This document shows positions 1,837 to 63,143 of a stretch of DNA of 64,000 nucleotides, one piece after another. Source of the DNA: Schmidtea polychroa (taxonomy: Eukaryota); the NCBI GenBank assembly GCA_044892525.1, contig CM097885.1, positions 35,032,001-35,096,000 on the forward strand. Direction: 5' to 3'. A program made the position numbers and the translations under genes. Numbering within the stretch: the first letter of the stretch is position 1; every line of letters starts with the position of its first letter. The notes under the pieces were generated by a model. That model was not told the DNA's origin, made no database searches, and was given only the letters and a program-made list of their open reading frames with translations.

Positions 1837-2945
1837 TCAGAATTCACCTAAAATATCCTGTTTCTTCAAGCATTTAGGGTAAGAACCTTTTAATATGATT
1901 ATAGTAATTTTTCAAATTACTATAATCTGGTTTGCTAAGTTCCTCGATAACTGCTTGGGATATTGCGGTAAATCTGTCATTGAAAGTCATCCTGGAAAAT
2001 CCATTAGCCGAGGAAACTTTAGTCCTTACCCCATTTTTAATATTGCTGAACACACTTTCGATGGTTTTCAAAAATGGACTATATGGAAGCAACTTTTCAA
2101 TGTGATTGTTCAAAGATAATACATTATTGTGGATGGATACATTATCGTGTATCAAAATGAATCCAGAGCCATTCAGTTTCTCAGTCAATTCTGTTATAAA
2201 TGACTGGTATGATTCCTTTCTAAAAGAGCCAATGATGATTTGTGAATGGATTGGCTCATCTTTGGATATTGCCAAAACTAGTGAAATATTGGGACCTCGA
2301 TTTGTTGGCACATTGCTGTAAATTCGAGTGCCTACTCGAGATCTTCCGAATCTCTTGTTTGTCCATGTATTGAAAGAGCATTCATCTATATACATAGATT
2401 TACTGCTCCTCCAACCTTCTTCAAGCAAACGTGTAACATATGTCTGCCGAATATCCAATATTCTATCTGAATTTCTTTCTTCCACACAAGGCCTGATCCT
2501 TTTGAAGGTTAATAATTGATTTTTCAGGTATCTGATATTGATTTTGTTGAAATTTCTACATTGTAATTTGTAGATAAAACAATCTCATTTGATTTAATGT
2601 CGAATAATTATTTCTTTCGACATAGTTCAATAATTCCTGACCAATAATTGTTGTGATAATTGTTGGTCGATTGCCTCCTCTTGTTCCTGCGGATAAAATT
2701 CCAGTCTTCATATATTTCACAATAATGCTGGTTATTGTATTCCGCTTAATTCCAAGAATACAGCCTAATTCATAATAATCATGGCCATCTTCCATGGATT
2801 TAATGATTCTTTTTTTATCAGCAATGGTTATTCTATATAGATTTTATAAAATAACTAAAGTTTAATGAAAAACTTACACATTTCTATGAATTTCTTGAAA
2901 TGGAATAGTCGATTCTGAAGAAACTTCTGAAATATCTTCGAACAT
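1837..2945 (-). pseudogene. IS630/Tc1-like DDE transposase, disrupted, with a 45-nt intron (2833-2877)
   Basis: Exon 1 MFEDISEVSSESTIPFQEIHRNV splices in frame to an HTH region (ELGCILGIKRNTITSII, RGGNRP); catalytic motifs YIDEC, HDNVSIH, LPYSPFLKTIE; frame breaks near 2555 and 1876. Confidence 0.8.
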
Positions 2946-23521: not shown

Positions 23522-23659
23522 GTATTAGTATAAAGTTATGATTTCTTCGTAGCAATATTAATTAAATGTTAAACAATTAAATGATGATTTAAGCATTTGC
23601 TGCGAATTATATATTTTCAAAGAATTTGCAACTGGAATTTAGTTGCTTCTATTTTCAAA

Positions 23660-25320
23660 TGCTTTTTGATTATTTCTTTTATTTCTTTTTTCTTACTTCT
23701 CATTGCTTTATTTTGTTTCTCGTTTTTAATGATATTTACTTTCTGTAAGTATGGAAGTCCTGATCTTTGTCGCATAAATATTTCTTTATGAGCTGGTATT
23801 TTGTAGAACCCGTATGTTGGAGTATCTACTTCTATTTTAATTTTTAGGTCCAATAGATTGAGGGATCTGTATTCGATATTCAATATTCGATATTCGATTT
23901 CAAACTTAATATCTATGTGACGCACTTACTGTATGAAATATTTGCTCCGCTTCTTTGGTGTGATAAAGATACCATCTACATATCTTGTGTAGAAACCGAT
24001 GGATTATTTGGTTCTCAGTGTTTGTCGTTCGATTTTCTCTCGAAATTTTGAAAATTATAATTTAAAATATTGAGATTACTTCGAACACAGAAAAAGAAAT
24101 ATTTTCATCTAAATATTCCATTAATCAGCGACATATTCGACTTCAAGATTATCAAAGAACGTAAACGCATTGGCTTTCAACGCGCTGGCAAACAACACAA
24201 AAAAGAAAACAATTGCACAATGGAAATCTGTCAGACACTGAAGAAAATATGCTTTCGAAAGACGTTGTCTGCTGCATCAAGTACAATCTATGCAAATAAA
24301 TATACATTGGAAATACGCTCAGGACCTTGCATCAAAGAGTTAAAGAACATCTAGATCCTGGTGGAAAATCCTCGGTATACAGACATTTCCAACAATGTCA
24401 ACCAACAAAGGAAAGAAAATATATTTTAATTGAAATCTTAGCCAATAGAAACATCCAAAAGAAAAATATTAGATTATTATTATTATTATCAAATTTGCAT
24501 GCAGTGTACAACTAAAGTCTTTGTTTCATTGCACGTGGGTGGCATTTTCTTTGCTAACATTGCATCCATTATGCATTGTAAACACAGTTTAAGGATGTAG
24601 ACCCTTACTATGTTATGGCCACATCTTAGAACATCGAGGGTATCACCATCATACTCACATGTCAAATACCTTTCGAATGATACCTATATTATATAGTTTT
24701 TCAAATTGTGAAGGTTTTTGACCCTTTGGAGGTTATAAATGCGCCTTAAACCTTCGAGGGTATGACCACTGGATAGTGCTTATCAAGACCTTTCAAATGA
24801 TACCCATAAAGGTTGACCTCATTTGGTCCTTTAAAATTTTGAATTTAAAATGAGTCACCCTCGATTTGGCATATGGATGCATGTGATAAGTCATCGATGA
24901 CATCATTTATTGAGTCATGTCCTTTGTTATGAGCCATCGATGAGTCATATATCTTTGTTTAACGATGACTCATGGATAACACTTCTACCTACTCATTCTC
25001 ATCATAAACTGTCGGCCAACTATCAGAACTAAAGAAGAGATCAATGAAATCATCAGTTTGATTAGTCGTTATTGACCTTGAGATTGAGCATATTTTTTTT
25101 TTAAAATAATAAAATTTTAAGGAAATAAACATTTAGAGATTAATAGAAATAAAAATCAAAATATAAACATTTTTAAAAAATTTTTAAATTGTGTATGTAA
25201 ATAGTTTTTGGAAACTTTATTTTTATAAATATTTTATGATATTATTTATTAAAAGAAGTTTATAGAAGCTTTGAAAACTTAAAAATTTTTTATTGTTTTG
25301 TTTTAAATTTTAGAAGATTG
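23660..25320. mobile_element. Rearranged Penelope-like copy: RT piece on minus (~23660-24032), endonuclease and 3' end on plus (~24080-24475, ~24995-25320)
   Basis: Nucleotide similarity to the 27.3-28.3 kb copy, in opposite orientations for the two halves. Confidence 0.75.
24476..24990. mobile_element. Insertion interrupting the Penelope endonuclease (Helentron/DINE-like repeat)
   Basis: Penelope sequence resumes after it; repeated CTTTC(G/A)AATGATACC and TCGAGGGTAT motifs; TGAGTCA cluster at its end. Confidence 0.45.
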
Positions 25321-27271: not shown

Positions 27272-28254
27272 TCAATGACAACAGATCAAATTCATGATTT
27301 CATTGATTTTTTCTTTAGTGTTGATCTTTGGCTATCTGTTCATGATGAGAATTGCTTCTTTGATTCTGACATTTTTCTTTTGAATGTTTCCATTAGCTAT
27401 GATTTCGATTGAAATATTTTTTCTTTCCTCTGTTGGCTGACACTGCCGGAGATGTCTGCTCAACGAGGATGTTCCACCAGGATCTATGTGTTCTTTAACT
27501 CTTTGGTGCAAGGTCCTGAGTGTACTTCCAATGTAGATTTCATTGCATACATTGCACGTGATGCAATAGACGATGTTTTTTCTAAAGCACATATCTTTCG
27601 GTGTCTGACAGTTTTTCATTGTGCAATTGTTTTCTCTATTTATCTTGCCTGCCAGAGCCCTTCTCAGTGTCCAAGATTTATGTGCTATATTAATTGGAAG
27701 GCCGGTACGTTTAAGTTCTTTCAGGATCTTGAAGTCGAGTGTGTCACTGATGAATGGGATATTCAGATAGAAATATTTCTGATTCTTTTGTGTTAATTCC
27801 TTAGATCTTTTTGGGGTAGAATTCATTCTTTCAATGTCCTCACCTTGGTATCCGTTTTTATGTAGGATTTTATTGAAATTTGATTGTTCGTTAAAGTTTT
27901 CGTTTTTTCCCTGTATCGATTTACTATTCTTCGTTTCTCGTTTCTTATGACATGTACTTTCTGTAAGCATGGAAGCGCTGATCTTTGGTGCATAAATATT
28001 TCTTTGCGAGTTGGTTTTCTGTAGAACCCGTATGTTGGAGTATTTCCTTCTATTTTAATTCTCAAATCAAATAAATTGAGGGATCCATATTCTTCCGGAT
28101 ATTCGATTTCGAACTTAATATCTCGGTGAGCCGCATTGAATGTATGAAATATTTCCTCCGCTTCTTTTTTGCTTTTGGTCGTGATGGAGATATCATCTAC
28201 ATATCTTGCATAGAAACCGATGGGTTTTATGGTCCTCAGTGTCTGTCGTTCGAG

Positions 28255-28255
<1 letters not shown>
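27272..28255 (-). mobile_element. 5'-truncated Penelope-like retroelement (RT C-terminus + GIY-YIG), frameshifted; 3' UTR extends to ~26630
   Basis: GFYARYVDD, YRKPT, and CFRKNIVYCITCNVCNEIYIGSTLRTLHQRVKEH; abuts an (AAT)n tract at 28256-28335. Confidence 0.9.
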
Positions 28256-28338
<83 letters not shown>

Positions 28339-31153
28339 TTTATTATTAATTACACACATATATATATCATATAAAATGATTGACGTTTATTCGAAGGTTA
28401 ATGTGTAATTCTGACAAATTCATCGCTATTGGTAAATTATGAAAGGGGTCAGTGTTTTGTTCTATATAAATTTTGTTCATATTAAATGTTTTGGGATCAA
28501 GAAATAAATATTTTTTTGTAATTTTATTATTGGTTTCCACAGAGGAAAGAGGACTGTTTACTTGATCGCGAGTTATTGTTTCTGCAGTTTTTCATTTTCA
28601 TATCCGCTCCTTTTTTACCTCCTTTCAGTCAAACCAACCTAAATTATAGCAAAGCTTGTAAAACAAATAAAAGATTAATTCTAATCAAAAATTAACATCA
28701 AAATGAAAAACTTTATTAAAATTTAATTTTGTATACAAATGCTTACATTTTAATGTTTCGTTTATATTTTATCATTTAATTATAAATTTAAAATTAATTT
28801 TGAATATGTGAGAAAGTATTTTTGATGAAATATTTTGCTAACAAATAATATATTAAGTGTTTAGGTTTGCCTATAAACATGTGTCCATTTTCTCTAGGAA
28901 TAATTTTTGATGAAAAGAAATATTATAATTGACGTTTGATAAGATTAATTAAATTACTATTTTTAAAATAGTAATAATTATTTAATTATTTAATTTTCCA
29001 AAATTTGGAATTAATCGATCATTATTTTATGATTACTTGAAAATATTATTTTCTCATTATTATATATTAAACGTCAAAATAATTCAAAATGCAATCAAAG
29101 TACAATTTTAGAAAGGTCTTATTAAAATATTTTATCATATCCAATGAAGTTATTCTATGAAATAGCGAAATGTACTGATTTACCAATCAAAAACCTTCAC
29201 CCAAGATTTACCGAAATTAATTATTCATTAACTCTAGCAATTATTAATCGTAATAAAAATAATTTTAATTGATTGAATTAGGAATTTCGCAATTATAAAA
29301 TAATTTAATCGAATTTTCAATGGTGAAAATCGATTCCACAGAATATTTTTCGAAAATTCCATTAATAAATTTTTATCAATACCGAAAAAAAATATATGTT
29401 ATGAAATCGGAGAATAATAAAATATTCGGCTTTGAAATGCTTCTTATATCTTGTTCACATTTAACTAATTGTTTGCTTTCAAAATTTATTTTCCATTTTG
29501 ATCAAATTCTTTTGAAATACGATGCCAATAGTATGAAGAATTTTTTCTCTTTTTTCCCATATCGACAAATCACATGAAATATCTCGGTTGATTTTGTTAA
29601 AAAATTATTTCTCACAAATTTCTGTAATTAATTTCTATAATTGACTGATTTTTTTTAATCAAAATGCAGAATAGAATAAATTTTCTTTCATTTTGTTTTT
29701 AGAATTTTCATGATTTTTGTTTTTTTTAAAATAAATTCCAAAAAATTTTATTAAAAAAATATATAGATTTCTGAATGGTTCCTCTTTTACTTTTTAATAA
29801 CAAAATGTTGTCAGTGTTGTTGAAGCACTTCAATATTTAAACTGCACTTTTAACTTTAAAATTTAGCTTTAATTATTCTGTATTTGCAATTCAGTACACA
29901 CATTATTCTTTCTTCATTACCTTTATTCTGTTAATATTTTTAAACTAAATTAAACTGCAATATACTCATTTTTTGGTCACCTTCGATCTATTTTCATGTT
30001 TTGATGATATTTGATTTTTTTTCATAAAATAAATAAACTAAAATCTTTATTTAAAATAAAAATGCAATATAATATAATAGTTTTTGATATTGAGGTATAT
30101 TTTGAGAACTTATGATGACAATGGAGATTTTTTTGATAGACTCAAAGACTTTTAATATTAAAATAAAATTAAAAATTTTTGCAAATAATGTTACATTTCA
30201 TAAAAATTTTTATTTTTTATATGCTAAATAAAATTGTGATTTGTACAACATGTCACAATAAAAAGTCCTAGATGTTTTTTACTAATGTTCACTGGATATA
30301 GAAAGAAAAGTGATGAGTGAGTCTTGGCTGTTAGCAAATTTATCAAAGTTAATGACAAATAATAACAAAAAATAATATCTATCAGTGAAAAGTAGTAGTT
30401 GAAATAATTTATCAGAATTCAAGGTTTTACTTAGATTAATACAAATTAATTAATTAAATTAATTTACTTAAAATAAATATTTTTAATTTATTATAATTTT
30501 TATAATACAAACAGTTAGATCTGGATATCGAATAAATTCATTTTCCGTTATACAACAAAAAAATTTGCGCTATATTATGTTATTTAAAAGAAAAACATTT
30601 AATAATTTCCAAAAATCATTTTTTCGGTATTTTTTTGAAATAGTTTTTGATTTATTTTAATAAATATTTCCTTTATAAATTGAACACAATAAAAAAGCGA
30701 AATCCTTTAATTAGATAAATTTGCTGATATTATTCACAGAAAATACCGAAAGTTAATCGCATTGATATCTTTCGACAATTGTATAATAATCTAATTATTA
30801 ATTTGATTCATACATTTCCCGGACAGCCTAGAATTTCCCTGATCATACCTGTGACAATGATCAAATGTTAGAGAGTTTCTTTCTATAAATGGGAATTGAT
30901 AAAATTTATTATAACCAAACAGAAGACCGTTAAATATGGAAATTTTTTTTCTGATTCAATCACTGATATAAAATTGCGACAAATTTAACTGGAAAGTTAT
31001 ATGAAATAAATTTTTAGATATTAAATATTTTACATAAATAAAATGTATAATTGAATGCAAAACATAGATCTGTTGGGTTTACTAAATTTTGGTAGGAATA
31101 AATTTACAGCATAACTTCACATGTTTTTATATAAAAACAAAAAGACTCAACTA

Positions 31154-47729: not shown

Positions 47730-48266
47730 AAAATTAAAATTAAAATTAAAATAAAATAATTAAATAAATATCATTTAAAATTCAAAATGACAAAAACTAA
47801 AACCTTTAAATATTTTAAAGCTTCTATAATTAGCTTCTAGAAGCCTAATAAAATATTTCAAAATATTTTCAAATAAAGTCTCCAATAACCATTTATATAC
47901 GCTATTTAAATATTTCAATAAATGTGTCAATTTTGATTTTTAAATCCTATCTTTTGAAAGTATATTTCCTAAAATTTTCTATATTATTTTAATTATTACT
48001 TTAAATTTATAATATTTTTTATTTTTTATATATTATCAGATATTCTCAAGGTGAATGACAACAGACCAAATTCATGATTTCATTGATTTCTTCTTTAGTT
48101 TTGATTTTTGGCTGTCTGTTTATGATGAGAATTGCTTCTTTTAATCTGACATTTTTCTTTTGGATGTTTCCATTAGCTATGATTTCGATTGAAATATTTT
48201 TTCTTTCCTCTGTTGACTGACATTGTTGGAGGTGTCTGTTTATCGAGGATGTTCCACCAGGATCTA
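47730..48266 (-). mobile_element. Short 3' fragment of the Penelope-like family (endonuclease end + 3' UTR)
   Basis: DPGGTSSINRHLQQCQSTEERKNISIEII..KEAILIINRQPKI matches the 27.3-kb copy, and the downstream non-coding sequence is shared. Confidence 0.85.
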
Positions 48267-48284
48267 AATCTTTGCGTCTCCTGC

Positions 48285-48326
48285 ATATTACTGATGAGAG
48301 CCAAAAGCTCGAAACTAGTCTACTAT
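48285..48326 (+). ncRNA. Minimal type-I hammerhead ribozyme with a canonical core
   Basis: atatta-CTGATGA-gagc-caaaa-gctc-GAAA-ctag-TC-tactat: perfect stem II, palindromic stem III, stem I with one mismatch. Confidence 0.75.
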
Positions 48327-48639
48327 TGGGATTGGCACTGGGTATCACCAAGCTTGTACTGTTTATTTTATTGAAGTGAGACATCCGACAAAAAAATTTT
48401 ACACCATTACTTTATAAGTTAAAAATGCTAAAGGTAATCGGATGTACTTGTAAACAGTTTCTGTGTATCGACTAATTTTTTAGTCCGCTGAGGTGATTAT
48501 GATTTTTCATACGCCATGTTTACAAGTTTACAGATTTTTTCTATGACCAAGCTAATTTGCAAGTGATGTGATTTCCAGTGTACCGGGGAAAGTATGCAAT
48601 TGAGTTGAATCAGCAATATAAAATAACTTTATAAAATAA

Positions 48640-49760: not shown

Positions 49761-49976
49761 AGTAGTGTAGGAACCTAGCACTTGACCACTCACACCCCAC
49801 AGCTTCCAACTCCACAGCCCTCAATTATTACCCTTTAATGTAAAAAAATAACAGTTTTTTTAAACCTTTTAATCTTTTTAACCCCCAAATTCTAAAACAC
49901 TCACTCTAATAAAGGAGATGATGGAAGGGGAAAAAGGCGAAAGGCGAAAGGTCAAGTGCTAGGTTCCTACACTACT
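49761..49976. repeat. Left terminal unit bounded by a perfect 27-bp inverted repeat
   Basis: AGTAGTGTAGGAACCTAGCACTTGACC (49761-49787) and GGTCAAGTGCTAGGTTCCTACACTACT (49950-49976). Confidence 0.95.
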
Positions 49977-50059
49977 TGCAATCTGCGCAATTTGCTAATA
50001 TAAAAAATATTTTAAAAATTCTAAAACACCCCACTCCAATAAAAAAATATTTTTAAAAA

Positions 50060-53000
50060 ATGAATTGTGAAGTTTGTAAAAAAACTTTTAAAAATAAATC
50101 TGCACTAATGTCTCATCAAAGATCAAAGATTCATTTATTAAAAACCAATCAACTAAATAATACCAACTCGAAAATTTGTACAAAATGTAAACAAAGATTT
50201 TTAATTTCTGGATACGATCGACATTTTGAAAGTTGTATTGGTATTCCTGAAAATAGAAAAAAATTTGAATGTCCAATATGTAAAATAAAAATTACTACAG
50301 AATTTTATTTTAAAAAACATGTAAAAAAATGTACCATAGAAAATATAGTCCCAACTCCCAAAGAAGATGAAGAGGAAGTGTATGAAGAAGAACCTGAACA
50401 CATTGAAAAAGAAAAATATAATTGGGATGGTTTTAATCATATAGATTTATTTGAAGAAGCATTTCAAGATTCATCGGTCTCAGAATATGTAAAGAAAAAC
50501 AAACAAAATATAAAAAATTCAATGGAAGATGCTTTGGATAAATTTGGTAAATCAAGATTTAATGTTATAAAATATAAAGTTATAATCCAGGCAAGATATT
50601 GGAGAGGAGAAGAAGCAAATACAGTTCCTTTAATTTCTGATATTGAAACACCATATAAATATTTATATTCAACCAAAGGGGTTAAAAAAATTATTAAAGA
50701 AATAATTAAAGAGGCTCAAGAACAACAAGAACAAGCAGAACAAGAATTGAGGGAATCAGATTTAAGATTTCACTCCTTTCAAAATATGCAAATTATATAT
50801 TGGAGAGGGGCACCCCCTAACCCCAAATCATACATCCCTACACCTTTTCGTTCTAATTCTCTTGTAAACGTGGAAAATAGTGATAATAAATGTTTTCAAT
50901 GGTCAGTCCTTGCACATTTACATCCTCAAGCTACAAACCCTCAAAGAGTATCAAAATACAAACCCTATGAGGGTGAATTGATATATCCAAAAGAGTTTAA
51001 ACATCCAATGAAAATTTGTGATGTACCAAAATTTGAAAGTTTAAATAATATCAAAATTAATATTTATGAATATATACACCATAAACATGATGATTTTAAG
51101 AAACATATCATTCCAATATACATTTCAGATAAAGAATTATTAGAACAAGATAGAAATCGGGAAATAGATCTTTTAATATTAGAGGAAGACATTGAAACCC
51201 CCATAGAAGGGGATTTAAATATTGAAAACATACAAGAAGAAAATATTGAAAGAAAACAACACTATGTTCTCATAAAAAACTTTCAAGCTTTTATGAGATT
51301 AAAAACACAAGTCAGAGGGGGAATAACATGTAAAAGATGTCTTCATTATTCAACATCTCCATCTTCAATAATTAAACATGAAAGGTTGTGCAGTAAAAAC
51401 CAACCAGCTTTAATTAAAATGCCTTTACCTATAAACGCAAAGATGCTTTTTAAAAACTTTTCAAACCTACTAGAAACATAAGGAGTAATATATGGATACT
51501 TTGAAGCCATAAATATAAAACAGGATCTAGACCAAGAATATTTCAAACTAATAGAAAAAAATAATCTAAATCTACAAAATGGGAGGACATGAAAGCCCTT
51601 TTAAAATTAAATAATAAATCCTACACTGTAAAACTAACAAAACAAGTGGCATCGGCCTATAAATTATTTTTCAAAAGTAATTACCCCGAGATTATAAACT
51701 CTGAAGAATTTTCATTTAGAGGATCCTCGGAAGAAGAGGTTTTAAATCATTTTACTAAAGACATGAATGATTTGGAACATAAACATTTTAAAACCTTAAA
51801 AATAAAACATTTAATAAACTTTTCAGAACAACAATGGGAAGAATATGAAGATTGCACAACTTGCTGGATGTGCAAACAGCCATTTGAGGATCAACTCTTT
51901 GAGGATCAACTCTTTGAGAATCAACTCTTTGAGGATCAAGGTCTTCCAGAGTCTATTGAAGAAGAAGAACAAAGATTATTCCATGAGGGTCAAACTCAAA
52001 ACATAAAAGTTCCTGACCATGACCACTTTAAAAAAGAAAATAATTATAGGGGAGCAGCCCATAAAAATTGCAATATAAACTGTAAAAGACCTGCATTTAT
52101 ACCGGTTATATTTCATAATCTTTTTGGTTATGACATCCACCTATTTATAAAACATCTAGCTGTAAATGCTAAAAATTCCTTTAAAGTCATAGGACTTACA
52201 AAATAAAAATATAAATGTGTACAATATGGGTGTTTAAAATTTATAGATTCTCTAAACTTTTTACAAATGTCTCTAGATGGAATATCAAAAACCATGAAAC
52301 CTGAAGATTTTACATTTACAAGAGAAATATTAATAAAAAATAATATTCCAGAACATGAATTTCCAACCTGTTTCGCTAAAGGAATCTATCCTTATGATTA
52401 TATCAACTCTTTTGATTGTTATAATGAAACATCTTTACCAGAGAAAGACTTGTTTTTTTTCAAAATTAAATCAAGCGGGTATAACTGATCAAGAATATAC
52501 TCGAGCAAATAAAATGTGGGAACTTTTCAAATGTAAAAACATTGGGGATTATACTGACATGTATTTATCCCTTGATGTTTATATCCTTGCAGATTGTTTC
52601 GAAGGATTCACAAAAGCCTTTACTCTTAAACCCTATAATTATATATCTTCTCCATCTTTAGCTTGGGATATTTTATTATATACTGTATGGACCTCTTCTG
52701 TTCCAGAGGATATACACCTATTAATTGAAATCGACATGTTTAATATATTTAAAGAAAATATTCGTGGAGGTGTTAGCTCCGTGATGGGAGATCGAGAACT
52801 AACAGCAAACAACTTTATATCTCTCCACAAGAAATTCTTTAAAGAAGATGAAGATTATGTAGAAATAAAAACTAAACAGGATTTAAATTTAATAATGGAG
52901 GGTTTAAATAATCCATCTGAAATAATGTATATTGATGCAACCGCTCTATATTCGGGAATCATGACTCAATATCTTCCAATTGGAAACTTTGAAGTCTCCG

Positions 53001-54433
53001 AGGATGAAATCTCTAAAATTTTAAAAACTGAAAAGGATTCAGAATTTGGATATGTTATAGAATGTGATCTTGAATACCCAGATGATATAAAACCTTCAAC
53101 TAGATACTTTCCATTTGCACCAGTAAAAAGAAAAATAGATCCAAATGAACTTTTACCTTGGCAGATTGAACAAAATAGGCCTACAACCACAAAGTTTTTA
53201 TGTGATCAAACTGATTAAACCTATTATCTTTGTCATTATAGATTATTACAATTTTATCTTTCTCATGGAATGGTTTTAAAAAATGTTCACTCAATCATAA
53301 AGTTTAGACAACTTCCATTCATGAAAACCTTTATAGAGGGAAATATCAAATCTAGGAATGAAGCAAAAAGAAATGGAAACGCTTTCCTCGATATGATTTA
53401 TAAACTTTTAAATAATTCAGTCTTTGGAAAGACAATGGAAAATGTTGACAAATATACACGTGTGGAATTATTAACAAATAGTCCAAAGGATTTTGCAAGG
53501 TATAATCGAATGCTTGGAAAACCTACATTTAAAAATGCCCAAGTATTCTCCGAGAACCTTTTAGCCGTTGAACTTCAAAATAGTGAAAAGACTTATAACA
53601 AACCAATCTTTATAGGCTTTTCAATTTTAGAATTATCAAAACTTCAAATGTATGAAACCTATTATGATATCCTAGTGCCACATTTTAAAAATAGAATATC
53701 TATGCATGCAATGGATACCGACAGTATGTTTTTAAAAATATATAGTAAAAATGTGAAAAAAGAAATATCAGAAAATGAAACCCTAAGGAATGTAATAAAT
53801 TCATCTGGAGAATTATTCACCTTTAAAGATGAAAAACCAAACACCCCAATACTTGATGCTGTATTTATTAGATCTAAACAATATTCACTTGAAATGATTG
53901 AAGGAGTAAAGACTGAAACCCATTCAATAAAAATAGAAGAAAAGGATTATACATTTGAAAGACCTATAGTTGAAAAGGTTAAAACATCCAAGGAAAACAA
54001 AAGTAAAGGAATACAAAAATGCATATCAAAAAGATTAACACATCAAGATTATAAAGATTCTCTAAATAAAAATCATGTAGATAAAATAGTTGAAGTTCAT
54101 CAGCTTAAATCTGAGAGACATAACATGTATTTAGAAGAATCAAATAAAGTTGCAATATCAAATTATGATGATAAACGTTGTATACTAAGTAATTTGAAAA
54201 CAACACTTCCTATTGGGAATAATTTAATCCCGATAATAAAAAACTTGAAAAGATTAAATGACTTGTATGCCACAAACTTCACAGATGTCCAACTGAGTAA
54301 ACTTGAAATTATAAACTTAAAATATTTAAATACTAACCCTGATTACATTCAAAGCCTATCAGAAAAAGAATTTGAAGATCATAGATTGGAGATTAAAAGA
54401 TATGAACAGTCATCCATGAAGGAAAGTCTCTGA
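50060..54433 (+). pseudogene. polB: Protein-primed family B DNA polymerase with N-terminal zinc fingers and an endonuclease VII-like insert; disrupted
   Basis: DNKCFQWSVLA, VIYGYFEA (Exo I), DHDH..YRGAAHKNCN, FHNLFGYD (Exo II), KGIYPYDY, IRGG, YIDATALY, KLLNNSVFGK, DTDS; stops at 51479, 52204, 53216; frameshifts near 51585 and 52455. Confidence 0.93.
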
Positions 54434-55640: not shown

Positions 55641-56222
55641 TTACGTCGAAGTCTTTAACCATTTCTCTCTATATTGTTTTTTAGAATATTCATCACCTTT
55701 AACCTTTGTAGTTTTCAACTTTATAACTTCATTTTTAATATCCCTTATTATTTGATTTGATTTCATTATTTCTTCATCTGTTAGGATTCCATCTTCCAAG
55801 GCTTTTAATTGAAATAAAAATAATTTTGATATCCCCAAGTCGATTGTCAAACAAACTTCACGATATAAACTTTTCTTTTTTGAAGTATAAGATAAAGAAA
55901 CTATTTCAGTCAAGAAAGAATCTGCAACAGAAATACTTCCAAGTATTACGGGTGCAAGAGTAACAACTGGTAAAGTTATAGGTAAAACAATTGTAAGTAT
56001 TGCAGATGAAAATCCTAAGGAGTAACCTATAATCTTTAAAGCTGTATTCCCTTTATTCCATCTTTTTTTAATTTTTTTATAATGCTTTAGTAAGTCTTGT
56101 AAATGTAAAGTTTCTGATTTAAATTCTTTCACTCTCATAACTTCAAGTTCTGTAGGAGCAGAAGGAGTCAATACTGGATATCGTACTATTGGACTTTGTA
56201 CTTCTGGACTTCGTACTTCCAT
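55641..56222 (-). CDS. Polinton/adintovirus membrane protein (hydrophobic hairpin, KAL.DG.L..EE motif) with N-terminal YPxL and PSAP
   Basis: YPVLTPSAP; IIGYSLGFSSAILTIVLPITLPVVTLAPVILGSISVA; KALEDGILTDEE. Confidence 0.75.
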   Translation of the reverse strand: MEVRSPEVQSPIVRYPVLTPSAPTELEVMRVKEFKSETLHLQDLLKHYKKIKKRWNKGNTALKIIGYSLGFSSAILTIVLPITLPVVTLAPVILGSISVADSFLTEIVSLSYTSKKKSLYREVCLTIDLGISKLFLFQLKALEDGILTDEEIMKSNQIIRDIKNEVIKLKTTKVKGDEYSKKQYREKWLKTST

Positions 56223-59077: not shown

Positions 59078-59641
59078 TTATATACCATCAATGTACCATT
59101 CTTCTTCTTCTTCAGATTCTGATTCAAAAAGTTGTAAATATAAACCTTTACCATTTTTAAGTTTACAAAGGCATCCTTTCTTCAAAGATTTACACATTTT
59201 TTTAAAATCATCTTTATCTTTTGAAGATAAAGATTCAGATGTAGAAATTTGATTTTTTAAAAAATCATTTAAACCTCTACCTTTATATGGATCGAGATAT
59301 AAACCTCGACCTTTATAAGGATTGAGATATAAACCCTTACCCTTCTTTTTCATTGAATCGATTTCAGTTTGTAATTTTTCTTTTTCTAGGTCTGTCTTTT
59401 GAGATTCTTTAGCTTTTTGAACTGTATTTGCAATTCCTCCAGCTATTCCAGCAGCACCTGATAAACCTGCAATGATTGCAGGTATTAAAGCCATTAGGGG
59501 AAGAATGCCACCTTGCTTCATCTGTCTCTCTTTAACTTGTTCTTTTACATGTTTTCCAATAAAATATTTTTTACCATCAATTACAACTGATTTATTTTTA
59601 TTTGAATTTATTAATTCTTGTAAAGATTCTTCAGTTGTCAT
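59078..59641 (-). CDS. Core/membrane-active precursor protein (adenovirus pX/pVI-like organisation)
   Basis: KQGG|ILPLMALIPAIIAGLSGAAGIAGGIA and four G(K/R)GL repeats. Confidence 0.65.
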   Translation of the reverse strand: MTTEESLQELINSNKNKSVVIDGKKYFIGKHVKEQVKERQMKQGGILPLMALIPAIIAGLSGAAGIAGGIANTVQKAKESQKTDLEKEKLQTEIDSMKKKGKGLYLNPYKGRGLYLDPYKGRGLNDFLKNQISTSESLSSKDKDDFKKMCKSLKKGCLCKLKNGKGLYLQLFESESEEEEEWYIDGI

Positions 59642-59657
59642 TTTATAATAAATAAAA

Positions 59658-60441
59658 ATGGATACTTGGAAACCAATTTTAACTCGGCACAAGAGTAAAT
59701 TTAATAATAAATTATTTCCTGATAATTTTAGATTATTAATCGTTGGGTCTTCAGGATGTGGAAAGAATGTACTTCTTTTGAGAATATTACTAGAAGAATG
59801 TTTTTTAGATTATAATAATTTAATCTTTTATTCTACAACCATAAATCAACCAGAGTTACAACTTTTGAAATGTGGATTTGAAAATAAATTAACTAAAAAA
59901 GCTATAATTGATATTTTTAAAAATCAACATAGATGTCCTGACGAGGTTTTTCAACCTTTTGATATGATTGATTGGTATAAGGAAAAGATTTTAGAATCAG
60001 ATATTGATAATAAAAGTGATTACATTTCTGAGAATGAATGGATTAAAGTTTTATTCTCTAATAAACCTAAAGATGTTTTACATTGTGATTTACTTCCTAA
60101 AGATGTAAAGAATCTAGTTATATTCGATGATGTTGTTAATATGAAAAACCAAGAGATTCAAAATAGTTACTTTACACGAGGTCGACATAATAATTGTAAT
60201 GTTATTTATATTTCTCAAACTTATTATGCTTTAGATAAAAATTCAATAAGAAATAATTCCAATTGTTTTATATTTAAAATTAGAAAAGCGTGATAAGAAT
60301 ATGATTTATAGTGATTTATTTTCAAATGTTGAACCTGATAAGCAAATGTTTGATATGTTTGTAGATAATCATTGGAAAGAAAAATATAATTATATTTATT
60401 TGGATAGAGAAGAAGGAGAAATATGGAAATGTTTATTTTAG
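59658..60441 (+). pseudogene. A32/FtsK-HerA packaging ATPase, frameshifted near 60278
   Basis: Walker A GSSGCGKN, Walker B LVIFDD, RGRH..IYISQ; the C-terminus continues in another frame to TAG 60441. Confidence 0.9.
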
Positions 60442-61794
60442 AAATCTGTTTTCTGTAGTTCATTATTATAAAATCTACCTAATATTTTTTTCATTATTTA
60501 AATCAATGATGCTATATGTTATTGGAATTGTATAATGTATTTTATTTATAATAAAAATTTCATTTGTCCATTTTGCTGTGAATCCTTTTTCAAATTTATT
60601 TTTATATTTAAATATTCTTACTCGGTCACCAATTTTAAACTTTGGTTTTTCATTTACCACTTTAGCGGTTTCAGGATTTATAAGTTTTAAAGGATTCAAG
60701 GAAGCATTTAAAGGTGTTGATTTTATAGAACTATGTACATCATTATTATATTCATTTACAATCTTTTGTAACAATTCATTGTTCCATTTTTGTTTTCCAA
60801 TAGCAGTAAAATATTTCCACATTTTATTTTTTAATGTTCTATTTAATCTTTCAACTACAACTGCTTTTCCTTCATTTTCTGTTGAATATAATTTAATATC
60901 ATTTTCATTTAAAAACTTTGTAAAAACTTTGTTATAAAATTCTGTTCCTTTATCGCACCATAAATATTTTGGAATTCTTTGATGTTCTTCAAATATATTT
61001 TCAAATGCTTCTGTAATAGAATATCCTGTTTTGGTTTCTAAACATCTTGCAAAAGCAAATCTCGTATATAAATCTATTACTGTTAAAATTATTTTATATT
61101 TTTCAGGGTCTGATGATTTGGTTGGCATAAAGACTAAATCAGCAGACCAAGTATGATCTTTTTCATGTACTTGAACTTTTAAATATTTTTTATTTTTTCT
61201 AAATTCATGGTGTAATTCGTTGGCATATTTTATTTGTGATTCTGTTGGGGTTTTTTAATTTGTAGAATCAAGGGTGTGATTCTCAATATCTGCTTGTTCA
61301 ATAATCTTTTTATTAGCAACATCTTTTGCTATTCTAGGAAGTCCTGCTCCAAAGAAGATCTTACCTTTCATTGCTAATTTAACTAGAGCTCTTTGAATCT
61401 TTTCTTGGGTTGATGGGTTTTGAATACTATTTAAATCATGTATTAAATTAACATCTGCAAGATGTCTATCCCTAAGGTCTTCAGAATAATAAGCAATATC
61501 ATGTTTTAAAGCTGCTTGATCAATTCTATTCACTGGTTCTTCTCCAGGTTTGGGATTATTATTTTCATCTAATCTAAGGTCTAGACGTGTTCCTGGTCCA
61601 GTATAGTTGTGATGGAATAAATGTCTTTCACCTGGATATTTTTCAGTAGTAAAGGGTTTTAATATTGAAGATGTTGTTTTTGAAGATTGAAGGTCTCCTC
61701 CCACTCGAGATGTATGTTTTTTAGTTTTAACATGACTTGCTTTATGATGTTTTCTAACTTGACAATTACAAATTTCACATTTTCAATAAGACAT
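60438..61794 (-). pseudogene. Zinc finger-phospholipase A2-retroviral-like DDE integrase, in one reading frame
   Basis: ATG 61794, CEIC..H..H; NYTGPGT..DQAALKHDIAY (parvovirus VP1u-type PLA2); ELH..WSADL..WCDKGTEF..VERLNRTLK; stops at codon 4 and 61255-61257; frameshift near 60485. Confidence 0.88.
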
Positions 61795-61810: not shown

Positions 61811-63082
61811 CTATGAATCGCCTCGTACATTTTCAATTATTGAAATCTTTCCACCATATAATTTCATTTCTATTTTCTTTTCTTCTAATATTAATGTATA
61901 TATTTTTGCTTTAAAATTAGAATTCTTTGTTATATGAAGTGTAACATCAACATTATTTATAGCTAGACGATCGTCTTGATCTGATACATTTATACAAAAT
62001 ATAGAATATAAATTTTTGAAATCTTCTAAACTTAATTGTGGTTCAACTTTAAAATCATAACATGTTTCAATATAATTTAGATATGGGAATATGTTTTCAT
62101 TATTTTCAATATTAAATTCCATTCTATTTATTGGATAATAAGAACTATTTAATTGAATTTGTATTGATTTTAAATTATCATCTCCAATCTTTTGAATAAA
62201 CAAGTTGTTATTTTTTTGGAAAGATGAATCTACTTCTTTGAATCCAATCAAGATATATCTTGGTCGGTATGCTAAATTTGCTACCTTTATAGAATATGTT
62301 GAACCCTCTGTCATACTAAATTCACTACAGACTCTATTTAAATAATTTACATTTATAGATTTGTTGGAATTTAATCTTTCAAGGAGTTTAATTTCAGATT
62401 GAGGATTTAAAGTGCATTCAGGTATATGTAATTCAAGTGTTGATAATTTTAATTTAGCTTTTGTATCTACACCTCCATAGAACAATTTCTTATCACCTTC
62501 TAGTCTATTACAGGTTAATTTTATAAAAACATTATGAAGTATACGATTATAGTTTTGAAGGAATCCAAATAAGTGTTTTAATTCAAAATAACCTTCAAAT
62601 TTTTTAGATTTATAAAGTTCAACTCTTTTATAATAACCATAATTTATATCTAAACCATCTTTATCTAAATCTCCTTTATTAGTATCAGGAATCCAACCTG
62701 TTAATTCACCATATTCATTTTTATAATCACAACCAGTTAAAATAAAATTTAACATTGTAGAATATACTCCTGGATGTAAAACAGTTTCAATTTCTGATGA
62801 TCCTAGTTTTAATCTCATGTTGGAGAATAAATTTGGAAAGAAATTATTTTCTAGGGTTATATCTTTGTTTGCTTCAATTTCTAATTCAATTTTATAATAT
62901 AATTTAGCATTACAAATATCTATTGGGTTTGATGTTTGAAGAGATTGAAAAACTATATCTCCCCTACGATTTAAGTTTGCAATAGATCCCGAGGTTGGAG
63001 AGATTTTTAAAATATCAATTTTTTTAATTTCATGCATAAATTCTTTATTGTAATCAAGATTTAATTTATTTTTATTACTCAT
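61811..63082 (-). CDS. Major capsid protein (double jelly roll), intact 423 aa
   Basis: LENNFFPNLFSNMRLKLGSSEIE, LKHLFGF, RPRYILIGF, YPINRMEFN, YSIFCINVS; size and position match Polinton MCP. Confidence 0.85.
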   Translation of the reverse strand: MSNKNKLNLDYNKEFMHEIKKIDILKISPTSGSIANLNRRGDIVFQSLQTSNPIDICNAKLYYKIELEIEANKDITLENNFFPNLFSNMRLKLGSSEIETVLHPGVYSTMLNFILTGCDYKNEYGELTGWIPDTNKGDLDKDGLDINYGYYKRVELYKSKKFEGYFELKHLFGFLQNYNRILHNVFIKLTCNRLEGDKKLFYGGVDTKAKLKLSTLELHIPECTLNPQSEIKLLERLNSNKSINVNYLNRVCSEFSMTEGSTYSIKVANLAYRPRYILIGFKEVDSSFQKNNNLFIQKIGDDNLKSIQIQLNSSYYPINRMEFNIENNENIFPYLNYIETCYDFKVEPQLSLEDFKNLYSIFCINVSDQDDRLAINNVDVTLHITKNSNFKAKIYTLILEEKKIEMKLYGGKISIIENVRGDS

Positions 63083-63143
63083 TTTTTATATTACTAAATT
63101 AGCAATTGCGCAGCTTGCTAGTTTTTAAGATTTAAAATTTTTA

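Follow-up and report, generated by a model that had tools for sequence, protein, structure and literature searches.

The locus described here raises the question of whether a small membrane protein encoded by a Maverick/Polinton of Schmidtea polychroa could draw the cellular ESCRT machinery into virus exit. A preliminary description of this DNA read the N-terminal sequence YPVLTPSAP as two adjacent late-domain motifs, one of the type bound by ALIX (YPxL) and one of the type bound by TSG101 (PSAP), on a viral membrane protein that might serve egress or quasi-envelopment. Collectively, our comparisons suggest that the motif feature is real and selected, that it is stronger at the level of the family than a single sequence could reveal, and that a role in egress is plausible.

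The element and its hairpin-protein gene

The window, meaning the whole stretch that was analyzed, comprises 64,000 nt of S. polychroa DNA (assembly GCA_044892525.1, CM097885.1, positions 35,032,001-35,096,000, forward strand) and consists of AT-rich eukaryotic DNA with simple repeats and transposon remnants. It holds a Tc1-like DDE transposase in two frames (1874-2843, minus strand) and a fragment with reverse transcriptase and GIY-YIG sequence (27332-28386, minus strand), presumably of Penelope type, with related pieces near 23617-24354 and 48046-48384. A Maverick/Polinton (adintovirus) spans 50060 to at least 63082. Its hallmark genes are all present, namely those for a protein-primed B-family DNA polymerase (PolB), an rve integrase, an A32 ATPase, and a double jelly-roll capsid protein, and a phospholipase A2 (PLA2) gene is found with them:

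50060-54433, plus strand: protein-primed B-family DNA polymerase region, four ORFs with frame breaks, PF03175 on the last piece
55641-56222, minus strand: gene for the SLATT-like hairpin membrane protein (193 aa; P0001), an ORF without a Pfam family
59078-59641, minus strand: gene with a pX-like segment (PF05829, E 3.4e-4, below cut-off)
59658-60293, plus strand: A32-type packaging ATPase (PF04665)
60475-61254, minus strand: retroviral-type integrase (PF00665)
61255-61782, minus strand: parvovirus-type phospholipase A2 gene, PLA2X-like (PF08398, E 1.5e-9)
61811-63082, minus strand: double jelly-roll major capsid protein (PF21738, E 1.1e-25)

All four polymerase pieces match a single intact ORF of one metagenome locus (L003), so the copy in the window is probably decayed, or its polymerase contains assembly errors. 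The frame of the A32 ATPase stops early, and similar sequence seems to continue in another frame. The protein had been called viral; this is right insofar as the gene belongs to a Maverick/Polinton, but its source here is an integrated and probably decayed copy. Among 14 metagenome loci that encode a homologue of the 193-aa protein, eight also carry a relative of another gene of the element, which makes the hairpin-protein gene a regular member of the Polinton gene set; in the other six, which are 1.2-2.5 kb long, no such relative was seen.

Other features of the element deserve mention. The pX-like protein contains three G[K/R]GLYL repeats, with a 30-bp tandem copy at 59267-59326, and we take such repeats to be typical of a protease-cleaved core protein. 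The PLA2 frame has no ATG, and its product is likely the element's entry enzyme. With this gene the element comes close to the class in Starrett et al. 2021 that bears PLA2X; the same work describes GasderminX of adintoviruses with a pX-like domain (PMC8502044), a domain not found in the 193-aa protein. Just left of PolB lies a perfect 27-bp inverted repeat that starts with AGTAGT (49761-49976), its arms 162 bp apart; no right-hand partner was found within the window, which ends 0.9 kb beyond the capsid gene. This pair, which we take to resemble two Polinton-type ends placed close together, looks like a miniature element or a rearranged terminus. A short imperfect inverted similarity, noticed by eye, between 49978-50000 (upstream of the PolB start) and about 63098-63119 (upstream of the capsid start) is possibly a shared promoter element or the remnant of a terminal repeat.

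Conservation of the two motif classes

Three segments of the hairpin protein are central to the argument:

56169-56180, minus strand: YPVL, residues 15-18, a YPx[L/I] motif of ALIX type (pattern and conservation), in the conserved N-terminal core of the family
56154-56165, minus strand: PSAP, residues 20-23, a motif of TSG101 type (pattern), optional in this branch
55923-56033, minus strand: uncharged hydrophobic stretch, residues 64-100, forming a hairpin with a turn at residues 84-89 (hydropathy and model)

As first described, residues 15-23 of the protein read YPVLTPSAP and map exactly to 56180-56154 on the minus strand, in an N-terminus that is indeed rich in proline (five prolines in residues 1-24). 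Across all six frames of the entire 64-kb window, this site is the sole occurrence of P[S/T]AP. YPx[L/I], with 10 occurrences in 26,042 six-frame residues of the element, is common, and its weight therefore rests on conservation. Within the 15 annotated ORFs of the element, P[S/T]AP is confined to the hairpin protein and YPx[LIV] is found additionally in one polymerase piece; no late-domain motif was found in the capsid protein of the window.

An exhaustive homologue search returned 178 clusters (E <= 0.001), with a listing of the best 150, and since most matches begin after residue 24, the motifs did not steer the selection of homologues. From 152 proteins, a 4358-aa outlier, one near-copy, and 31 sequences cut short or unaligned before the HY anchor were removed, leaving 119 including the query, and motif counts were compared with composition-matched shuffles. 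One of the 31 (P0018) is full-length and bears neither motif; the outlier (P0132), which is outside all counts, contains nine stretches that weakly match query residues 45-104. The homologues are mutually related and the counts are not independent events: YP is present in 108 of the 119 N-termini and YPx[L/I] in 89 (shuffle mean 1.6, maximum 8), while the wider YPx[LIV] occurs in 96 (mean 1.9, maximum 8) and the narrower YPxL in 48 (shuffle 0.9). Outside the N-terminus, in a remainder three times longer, YPx[LIV] is found in a single protein of the 119. In an alignment of 107 full-length members, which are 19-42% identical to the query except for one at 80%, Y15 and P16 are among the six positions conserved at 90% or more. 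The third residue after the tyrosine is L or I at 90 of 114 YP sites, F once, and M never, and YPXL/I is the form bound by ALIX and by its fungal counterpart PalA (PMC3244986, citing Vincent et al. 2003). PPxY is absent from all 119 N-termini of this branch and from all 119 of a distant branch described below. Farther along the protein, residues 140-151 form the KAL.DG...EE motif of the family (55770-55805, minus strand), with D144 and E151 in 98% of the 107 aligned homologues. On these counts, the putative ALIX-type motif, and not PSAP, is the core of the family in this branch.

P[S/T]AP behaves as a movable partner. It occurs in 17 of the 119 N-termini of this branch (shuffle mean 0.05, maximum 2), 11 of which also contain YPx[L/I], at positions from 19 residues before YP to 39 after it; in six proteins the two are fused as YP[S/T]AP, and in three they overlap as P[S/T]APLYP. 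On a tree of the core domain, whose few columns leave gain and loss indistinguishable, 16 of 107 members carry P[S/T]AP and 13 changes are needed, at least eight of them forced by well-supported branches. A test of whether PSAP makes up for an absent YPx[L/I] gave no support, since its frequency does not differ significantly between N-termini without and with that motif (6/30 vs 11/89, P 0.37). Downstream of the anchor, P[S/T]AP was seen in 4 of the 119 homologues. Judged from its enrichment and its scatter on the tree, P[S/T]AP is a real yet optional add-on in this branch.

A weak hit, P0176, led to a distant branch that contains coral proteins; the hit itself reads PSAL rather than PSAP. This second branch is homologous to the branch of the query (hhalign probability 98.6% over 154 columns, with YP aligned), and the few named sequences among the best 120 of 278 hits are coral proteins. 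Among 119 sequences with an N-terminus, YPx[L/I] is found in 107 and P[S/T]AP in 95; the sequences are closely related and therefore stand for no more than about ten lineages, and each motif is present in 9 of 10 once the set is thinned at 70% identity. The order is reversed in this branch, PSAP preceding YPx[L/I]. Scans of viral contigs, metagenome contigs, and a phage collection found no locus. The motifs thus proved to be conserved, YPx[L/I] throughout the family and P[S/T]AP as a recurrent feature that is dominant in the sister branch.

The juxtaposition of the two motifs fared differently: it is present in this copy but is not a family trait, given the range of offsets and the fact that all eight of the nearest relatives have IYPE[L/V] and then, 12-22 residues farther on, ASAP. 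The one-residue spacing is peculiar to this copy, so that the earlier emphasis on adjacency is misplaced, and the exact adjacency may be accidental. An Arg precedes YP here, whereas L, I, V, or M stands at that position in 97 of 108 YP-bearing homologues. An ITIM-type reading, considered by eye, was rejected because the hydrophobic residue sits at -1, not at -2 as in the ITIM consensus. Neither the Arg nor the ASAP of the nearest relatives need be fatal to motif function, since in EIAV p9 only Y, P, and L mattered (PMC8402826) and in the tiger frog virus protein VP065L an ASAP motif bound Tsg101 in co-precipitation; ASAP added little to arenavirus budding (both PMC4880917).

The N-terminus of this copy also contains a short duplication, EVRSPEVQSP (56181-56222), at which its nearest relatives differ, and indels among near-copies concentrate in the same interval. 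In four DNA-like runs from one study, many divergent contigs cover the gene and their summed depth, which is not copy number, drops about 10- to 40-fold over 56151-56212, a dip that fits with most related copies carrying another N-terminus. The two contig differences listed for the motif region both fall at third codon positions; 45 further differences lie beyond the listing.

Predicted topology and fold

An AlphaFold2 model built on 107 sequences (mean pLDDT 86.6) predicts helices at residues 25-83, 90-144, 149-172, and 179-192, preceded by an extended segment (residues 1-24, pLDDT about 62) with no helix before residue 25; in the model of the second branch (pLDDT 64.4), residues 10-19 fall under 50. 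The hydrophobic stretch at residues 64-100 is modeled as a hairpin that may form two membrane helices or a re-entrant loop. A 19-residue hydropathy peak above 1.6 is present in 107 of 107 members, the flanks of the hairpin have a median net charge of +4 and +4 in the same set, and a hydrophobic signal-like segment within the first 30 residues was found in 0 of 107. A hairpin, spanning or re-entrant, leaves both ends of the protein in the cytosol; with basic flanks on either side and no signal peptide, the N-terminus is predicted to be cytosolic. The location that the preliminary description had called for is thus the one that hydropathy and charge predict.

Sequence searches of Pfam, PHROGs, and the PDB returned no family match for the query, and no SLATT model of Pfam was reached at its curated cut-off. 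Nonetheless the predicted helix, hydrophobic hairpin, helix arrangement fits that of SLATT (SMODS and SLOG-associating 2TM) proteins, which are known from Polinton-like viruses, from giant viruses, and from bacteria, and weak profile matches exist: SLATT_5 in 2 of 107 homologues (E 0.01) and, below threshold in the distant branch, SLATT_1 (5 of 18), SLATT_fungal (1), DUF4231 (1), and an RTX N-terminal model. In addition, the PADLOC '2TM effector' model matches 18 of 70 members (best E 2.6e-6). SLATT-annotated viral proteins appear among the fold matches at weak E values (0.036-0.6; giant-virus proteins at 0.04-0.25 with the first model), helical bundles being easily matched, and the ESM Atlas gives unnamed clusters from molluscs, Nucleocytoviricota, and Preplasmiviricota, with a low DUF4231 lead. 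The models point to a SLATT-like fold that lies below family cut-offs, and we do not class the protein as a SLATT member.

The five best viral structures are the same for the models of both branches, and three of them are invertebrate iridovirus proteins named as uncharacterized (S6DF61, A0A068QKD3, and A0A5B8RH66; E 9e-7 to 7e-4, 16-21% identity) and are probable homologues of the Polinton hairpin protein. An iridovirus, tiger frog virus, buds through Alix and Tsg101 (PMC4880917). Weak-E matches to Ranid herpesvirus 2 ORF97 and ORF81 and to several small Acinetobacter phage proteins are possibly further members of this viral hairpin group. A fold search of the PDB gave nothing beyond BAR domains and helical bundles of a generic kind (best match Z 10.8, rmsd 4.0, 155 residues aligned); these scores fall short of what helical proteins require, and we do not read them as a sign of kinship with BAR domains or ESCRT-III.

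A putative ESCRT adaptor and its alternatives

Among the closest known systems is NS3/NS3A of bluetongue virus, which, like the Polinton protein as predicted here, has about 200-230 aa, two hydrophobic segments, and a long cytosolic N-terminus bearing late-domain motifs, PSAP included, and is encoded by a non-enveloped virus, as Polintons are presumed to be (PMC4452911). NS3 itself has 228 aa, two membrane helices, and cytosolic ends, the PSAP in its N-terminus binds Tsg101, and its C-terminus binds the outer capsid (PMC4452911). However, NS3 carries PSAP and PPRY, whereas the Polinton family has YPx[L/I], P[S/T]AP as an option, and PPxY nowhere in its N-termini; the loop of the Polinton hairpin is about six residues, unlike that of NS3; and NS3 belongs to a dsRNA virus, whereas the Polinton is a DNA virus. 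Orbivirus NS3 appears in one row of the fold matches of the first model, a weak one (Foldseek E 0.12, TM 0.26), and was not found among the best 50 rows for the second-branch model. The same motif classes, multiple and movable, are known from EIAV p9 (YPDL type), HIV-1 p6 (PTAP and LYPXnL), and hepatitis A virus VP2 (YPXnL) (PMC7923801, PMC8402826); these reside on Gag or capsid proteins, whereas the Polinton motifs sit on a separate membrane protein. Hepatitis A virus provides an example of the ALIX-dependent quasi-envelopment of a naked capsid (PMC8402826).

Our comparisons show that two motif classes of ESCRT type have been selected in the putatively flexible end of the Polinton hairpin protein. 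From the identity, selectivity, and conservation of these motifs, it is quite probable that they bind ALIX and TSG101, whatever the purpose. To the further proposal, that the protein is an NS3-like, membrane-anchored ESCRT adaptor for non-lytic release, we assign a probability of about one in two. In such a mechanism the central hydrophobic hairpin would insert in the membrane with both ends, as predicted, in the cytosol. The V domain of ALIX would dock on YPx[L/I] in the flexible N-terminus, and in certain lineages the TSG101 UEV domain would dock on P[S/T]AP or ASAP. ESCRT-III and VPS4 would thereby be drawn to a membrane patch at which the basic and C-terminal helices might tether capsids. 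Budding of these capsids, whether into multivesicular bodies or to the cell exterior, would proceed without lysis, in the manner of bluetongue virus and its NS3. That such an ESCRT ligand serves virion egress or quasi-envelopment is a further step that we infer, and the sorting or restraint of a SLATT-like pore former would fit the same data.

According to that alternative, the motifs do bind ALIX and TSG101, but the protein is a SLATT-type pore former; the contact with ESCRT would send it to endosomal vesicles, set its timing, or mend the damage that it does, and the capsids would stay unwrapped. The pore might serve holin-like lysis or an abortive defense against co-infecting viruses. The sub-threshold SLATT, DUF4231, and RTX matches of the distant branch, the '2TM effector' matches, and the weak fold matches to SLATT-annotated giant-virus proteins all favor it, and pores for entry, lysis, or defense have been proposed for the SLATT genes of Polinton-like viruses (PMC12220804, 10.64898/2026.10.13.758929). 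However, the query reaches no family cut-off, and late-domain motifs of two classes, variable in their order, are what viral budding proteins show (PMC7923801, PMC8402826). An entry pore would moreover be less needed, because the element encodes its own PLA2. NS3 has viroporin activity and shows that pore and budding roles need not exclude each other. We regard this explanation as possible, if somewhat unlikely.

Alternatively, YPx[L/I] could have a role in structure or oligomerization, packing against the helical bundle or against a different viral protein, with PSAP incidental. Y15 and P16 are conserved as strongly as core residues, residues 1-20 have a pLDDT of about 62 rather than below 50 in the first model, and a conserved YPX3L of BK polyomavirus VP1 proved to be structural (PMC11281352). 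That motif, however, sits inside a folded capsid protein, whereas here YP lies anywhere from 25 to 74 residues away from the helix anchor that is conserved first, depending on the homologue, and residues 10-19 have a pLDDT under 50 in the second-branch model. A structural role would also leave unexplained why P[S/T]AP occurs at about 340 times its shuffle mean in one branch and in 95 of 119 sequences of the other, and we consider it improbable.

The tyrosine motif might instead be a YxxPhi sorting signal read by the clathrin adaptors AP-1, AP-2, or AP-3 for endosome routing or retrieval from the surface, since YPVL fits that pattern and lies in the predicted cytosolic tail of a membrane protein. 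The YxxPhi consensus imposes neither a Pro after Tyr nor the exclusion of F and M from the last position, whereas in the family N-termini Pro follows Tyr at 98 of 121 Yxx[LIVMF] sites and F and M are almost absent; P[S/T]AP would again be left unexplained, and this reading is less credible still. Chance motifs in a proline-rich, repeat-prone N-terminus of a decayed element, for which the short internal duplication, the divergence of this copy from most related ones, and the broken polymerase might speak, are very improbable and are contradicted at the family level by enrichment over composition-matched shuffles in two branches.

A full-text search, the coverage of which leaves out most subscription papers, found no report of late domains, ESCRT, or PSAP in Mavericks, Polintons, or adintoviruses, and a search of the same kind found no paper on a Polinton transmembrane protein and virion egress. 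Burroughs et al. 2015 may have linked SLATT domains to viral release proteins; a literature search for such a link found nothing relevant. Starrett et al. 2021 name membrane-active genes and label a SLATT gene in their adintovirus maps, and late domains, ESCRT, ALIX, and PSAP are absent from their main text, the supplement being only partly covered (PMC8502044). 'ESCRT' is likewise absent from the accessible parts of papers on Polinton-like viruses that treat SLATT as a pore or a label (including PMC12220804 and 10.64898/2026.10.13.758929), and PMC8097293 and a leafhopper preprint provide, in their accessible parts, background only.

As far as these sources extend, the literature on Polinton exit leaves such membrane genes without a function or guesses pores. 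An ALIX-type motif throughout the family, joined recurrently by one of TSG101 type, points the search for particles to the vesicle fraction and not to naked capsids. If the adaptor reading is true, the NS3 mode of non-lytic exit would extend to integrated DNA viruses, and a group of uncharacterized iridovirus proteins would gain its first functional handle. More speculatively, and we hold this to be doubtful, animal Mavericks/Polintons and invertebrate iridoviruses may have in common an ancient egress adaptor of SLATT descent, by which jelly-roll capsids are wrapped in vesicles made by ESCRT. In that case these Polintons would be quasi-enveloped viruses and would spread within extracellular vesicles, a possible route for jumps between species. 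The wrapping would offer a reason for the few reports of free naked Polinton particles, which to our knowledge are seldom described, and a defense pore of bacterial type would have become a scaffold for budding, comparable to NS3 of orbiviruses.
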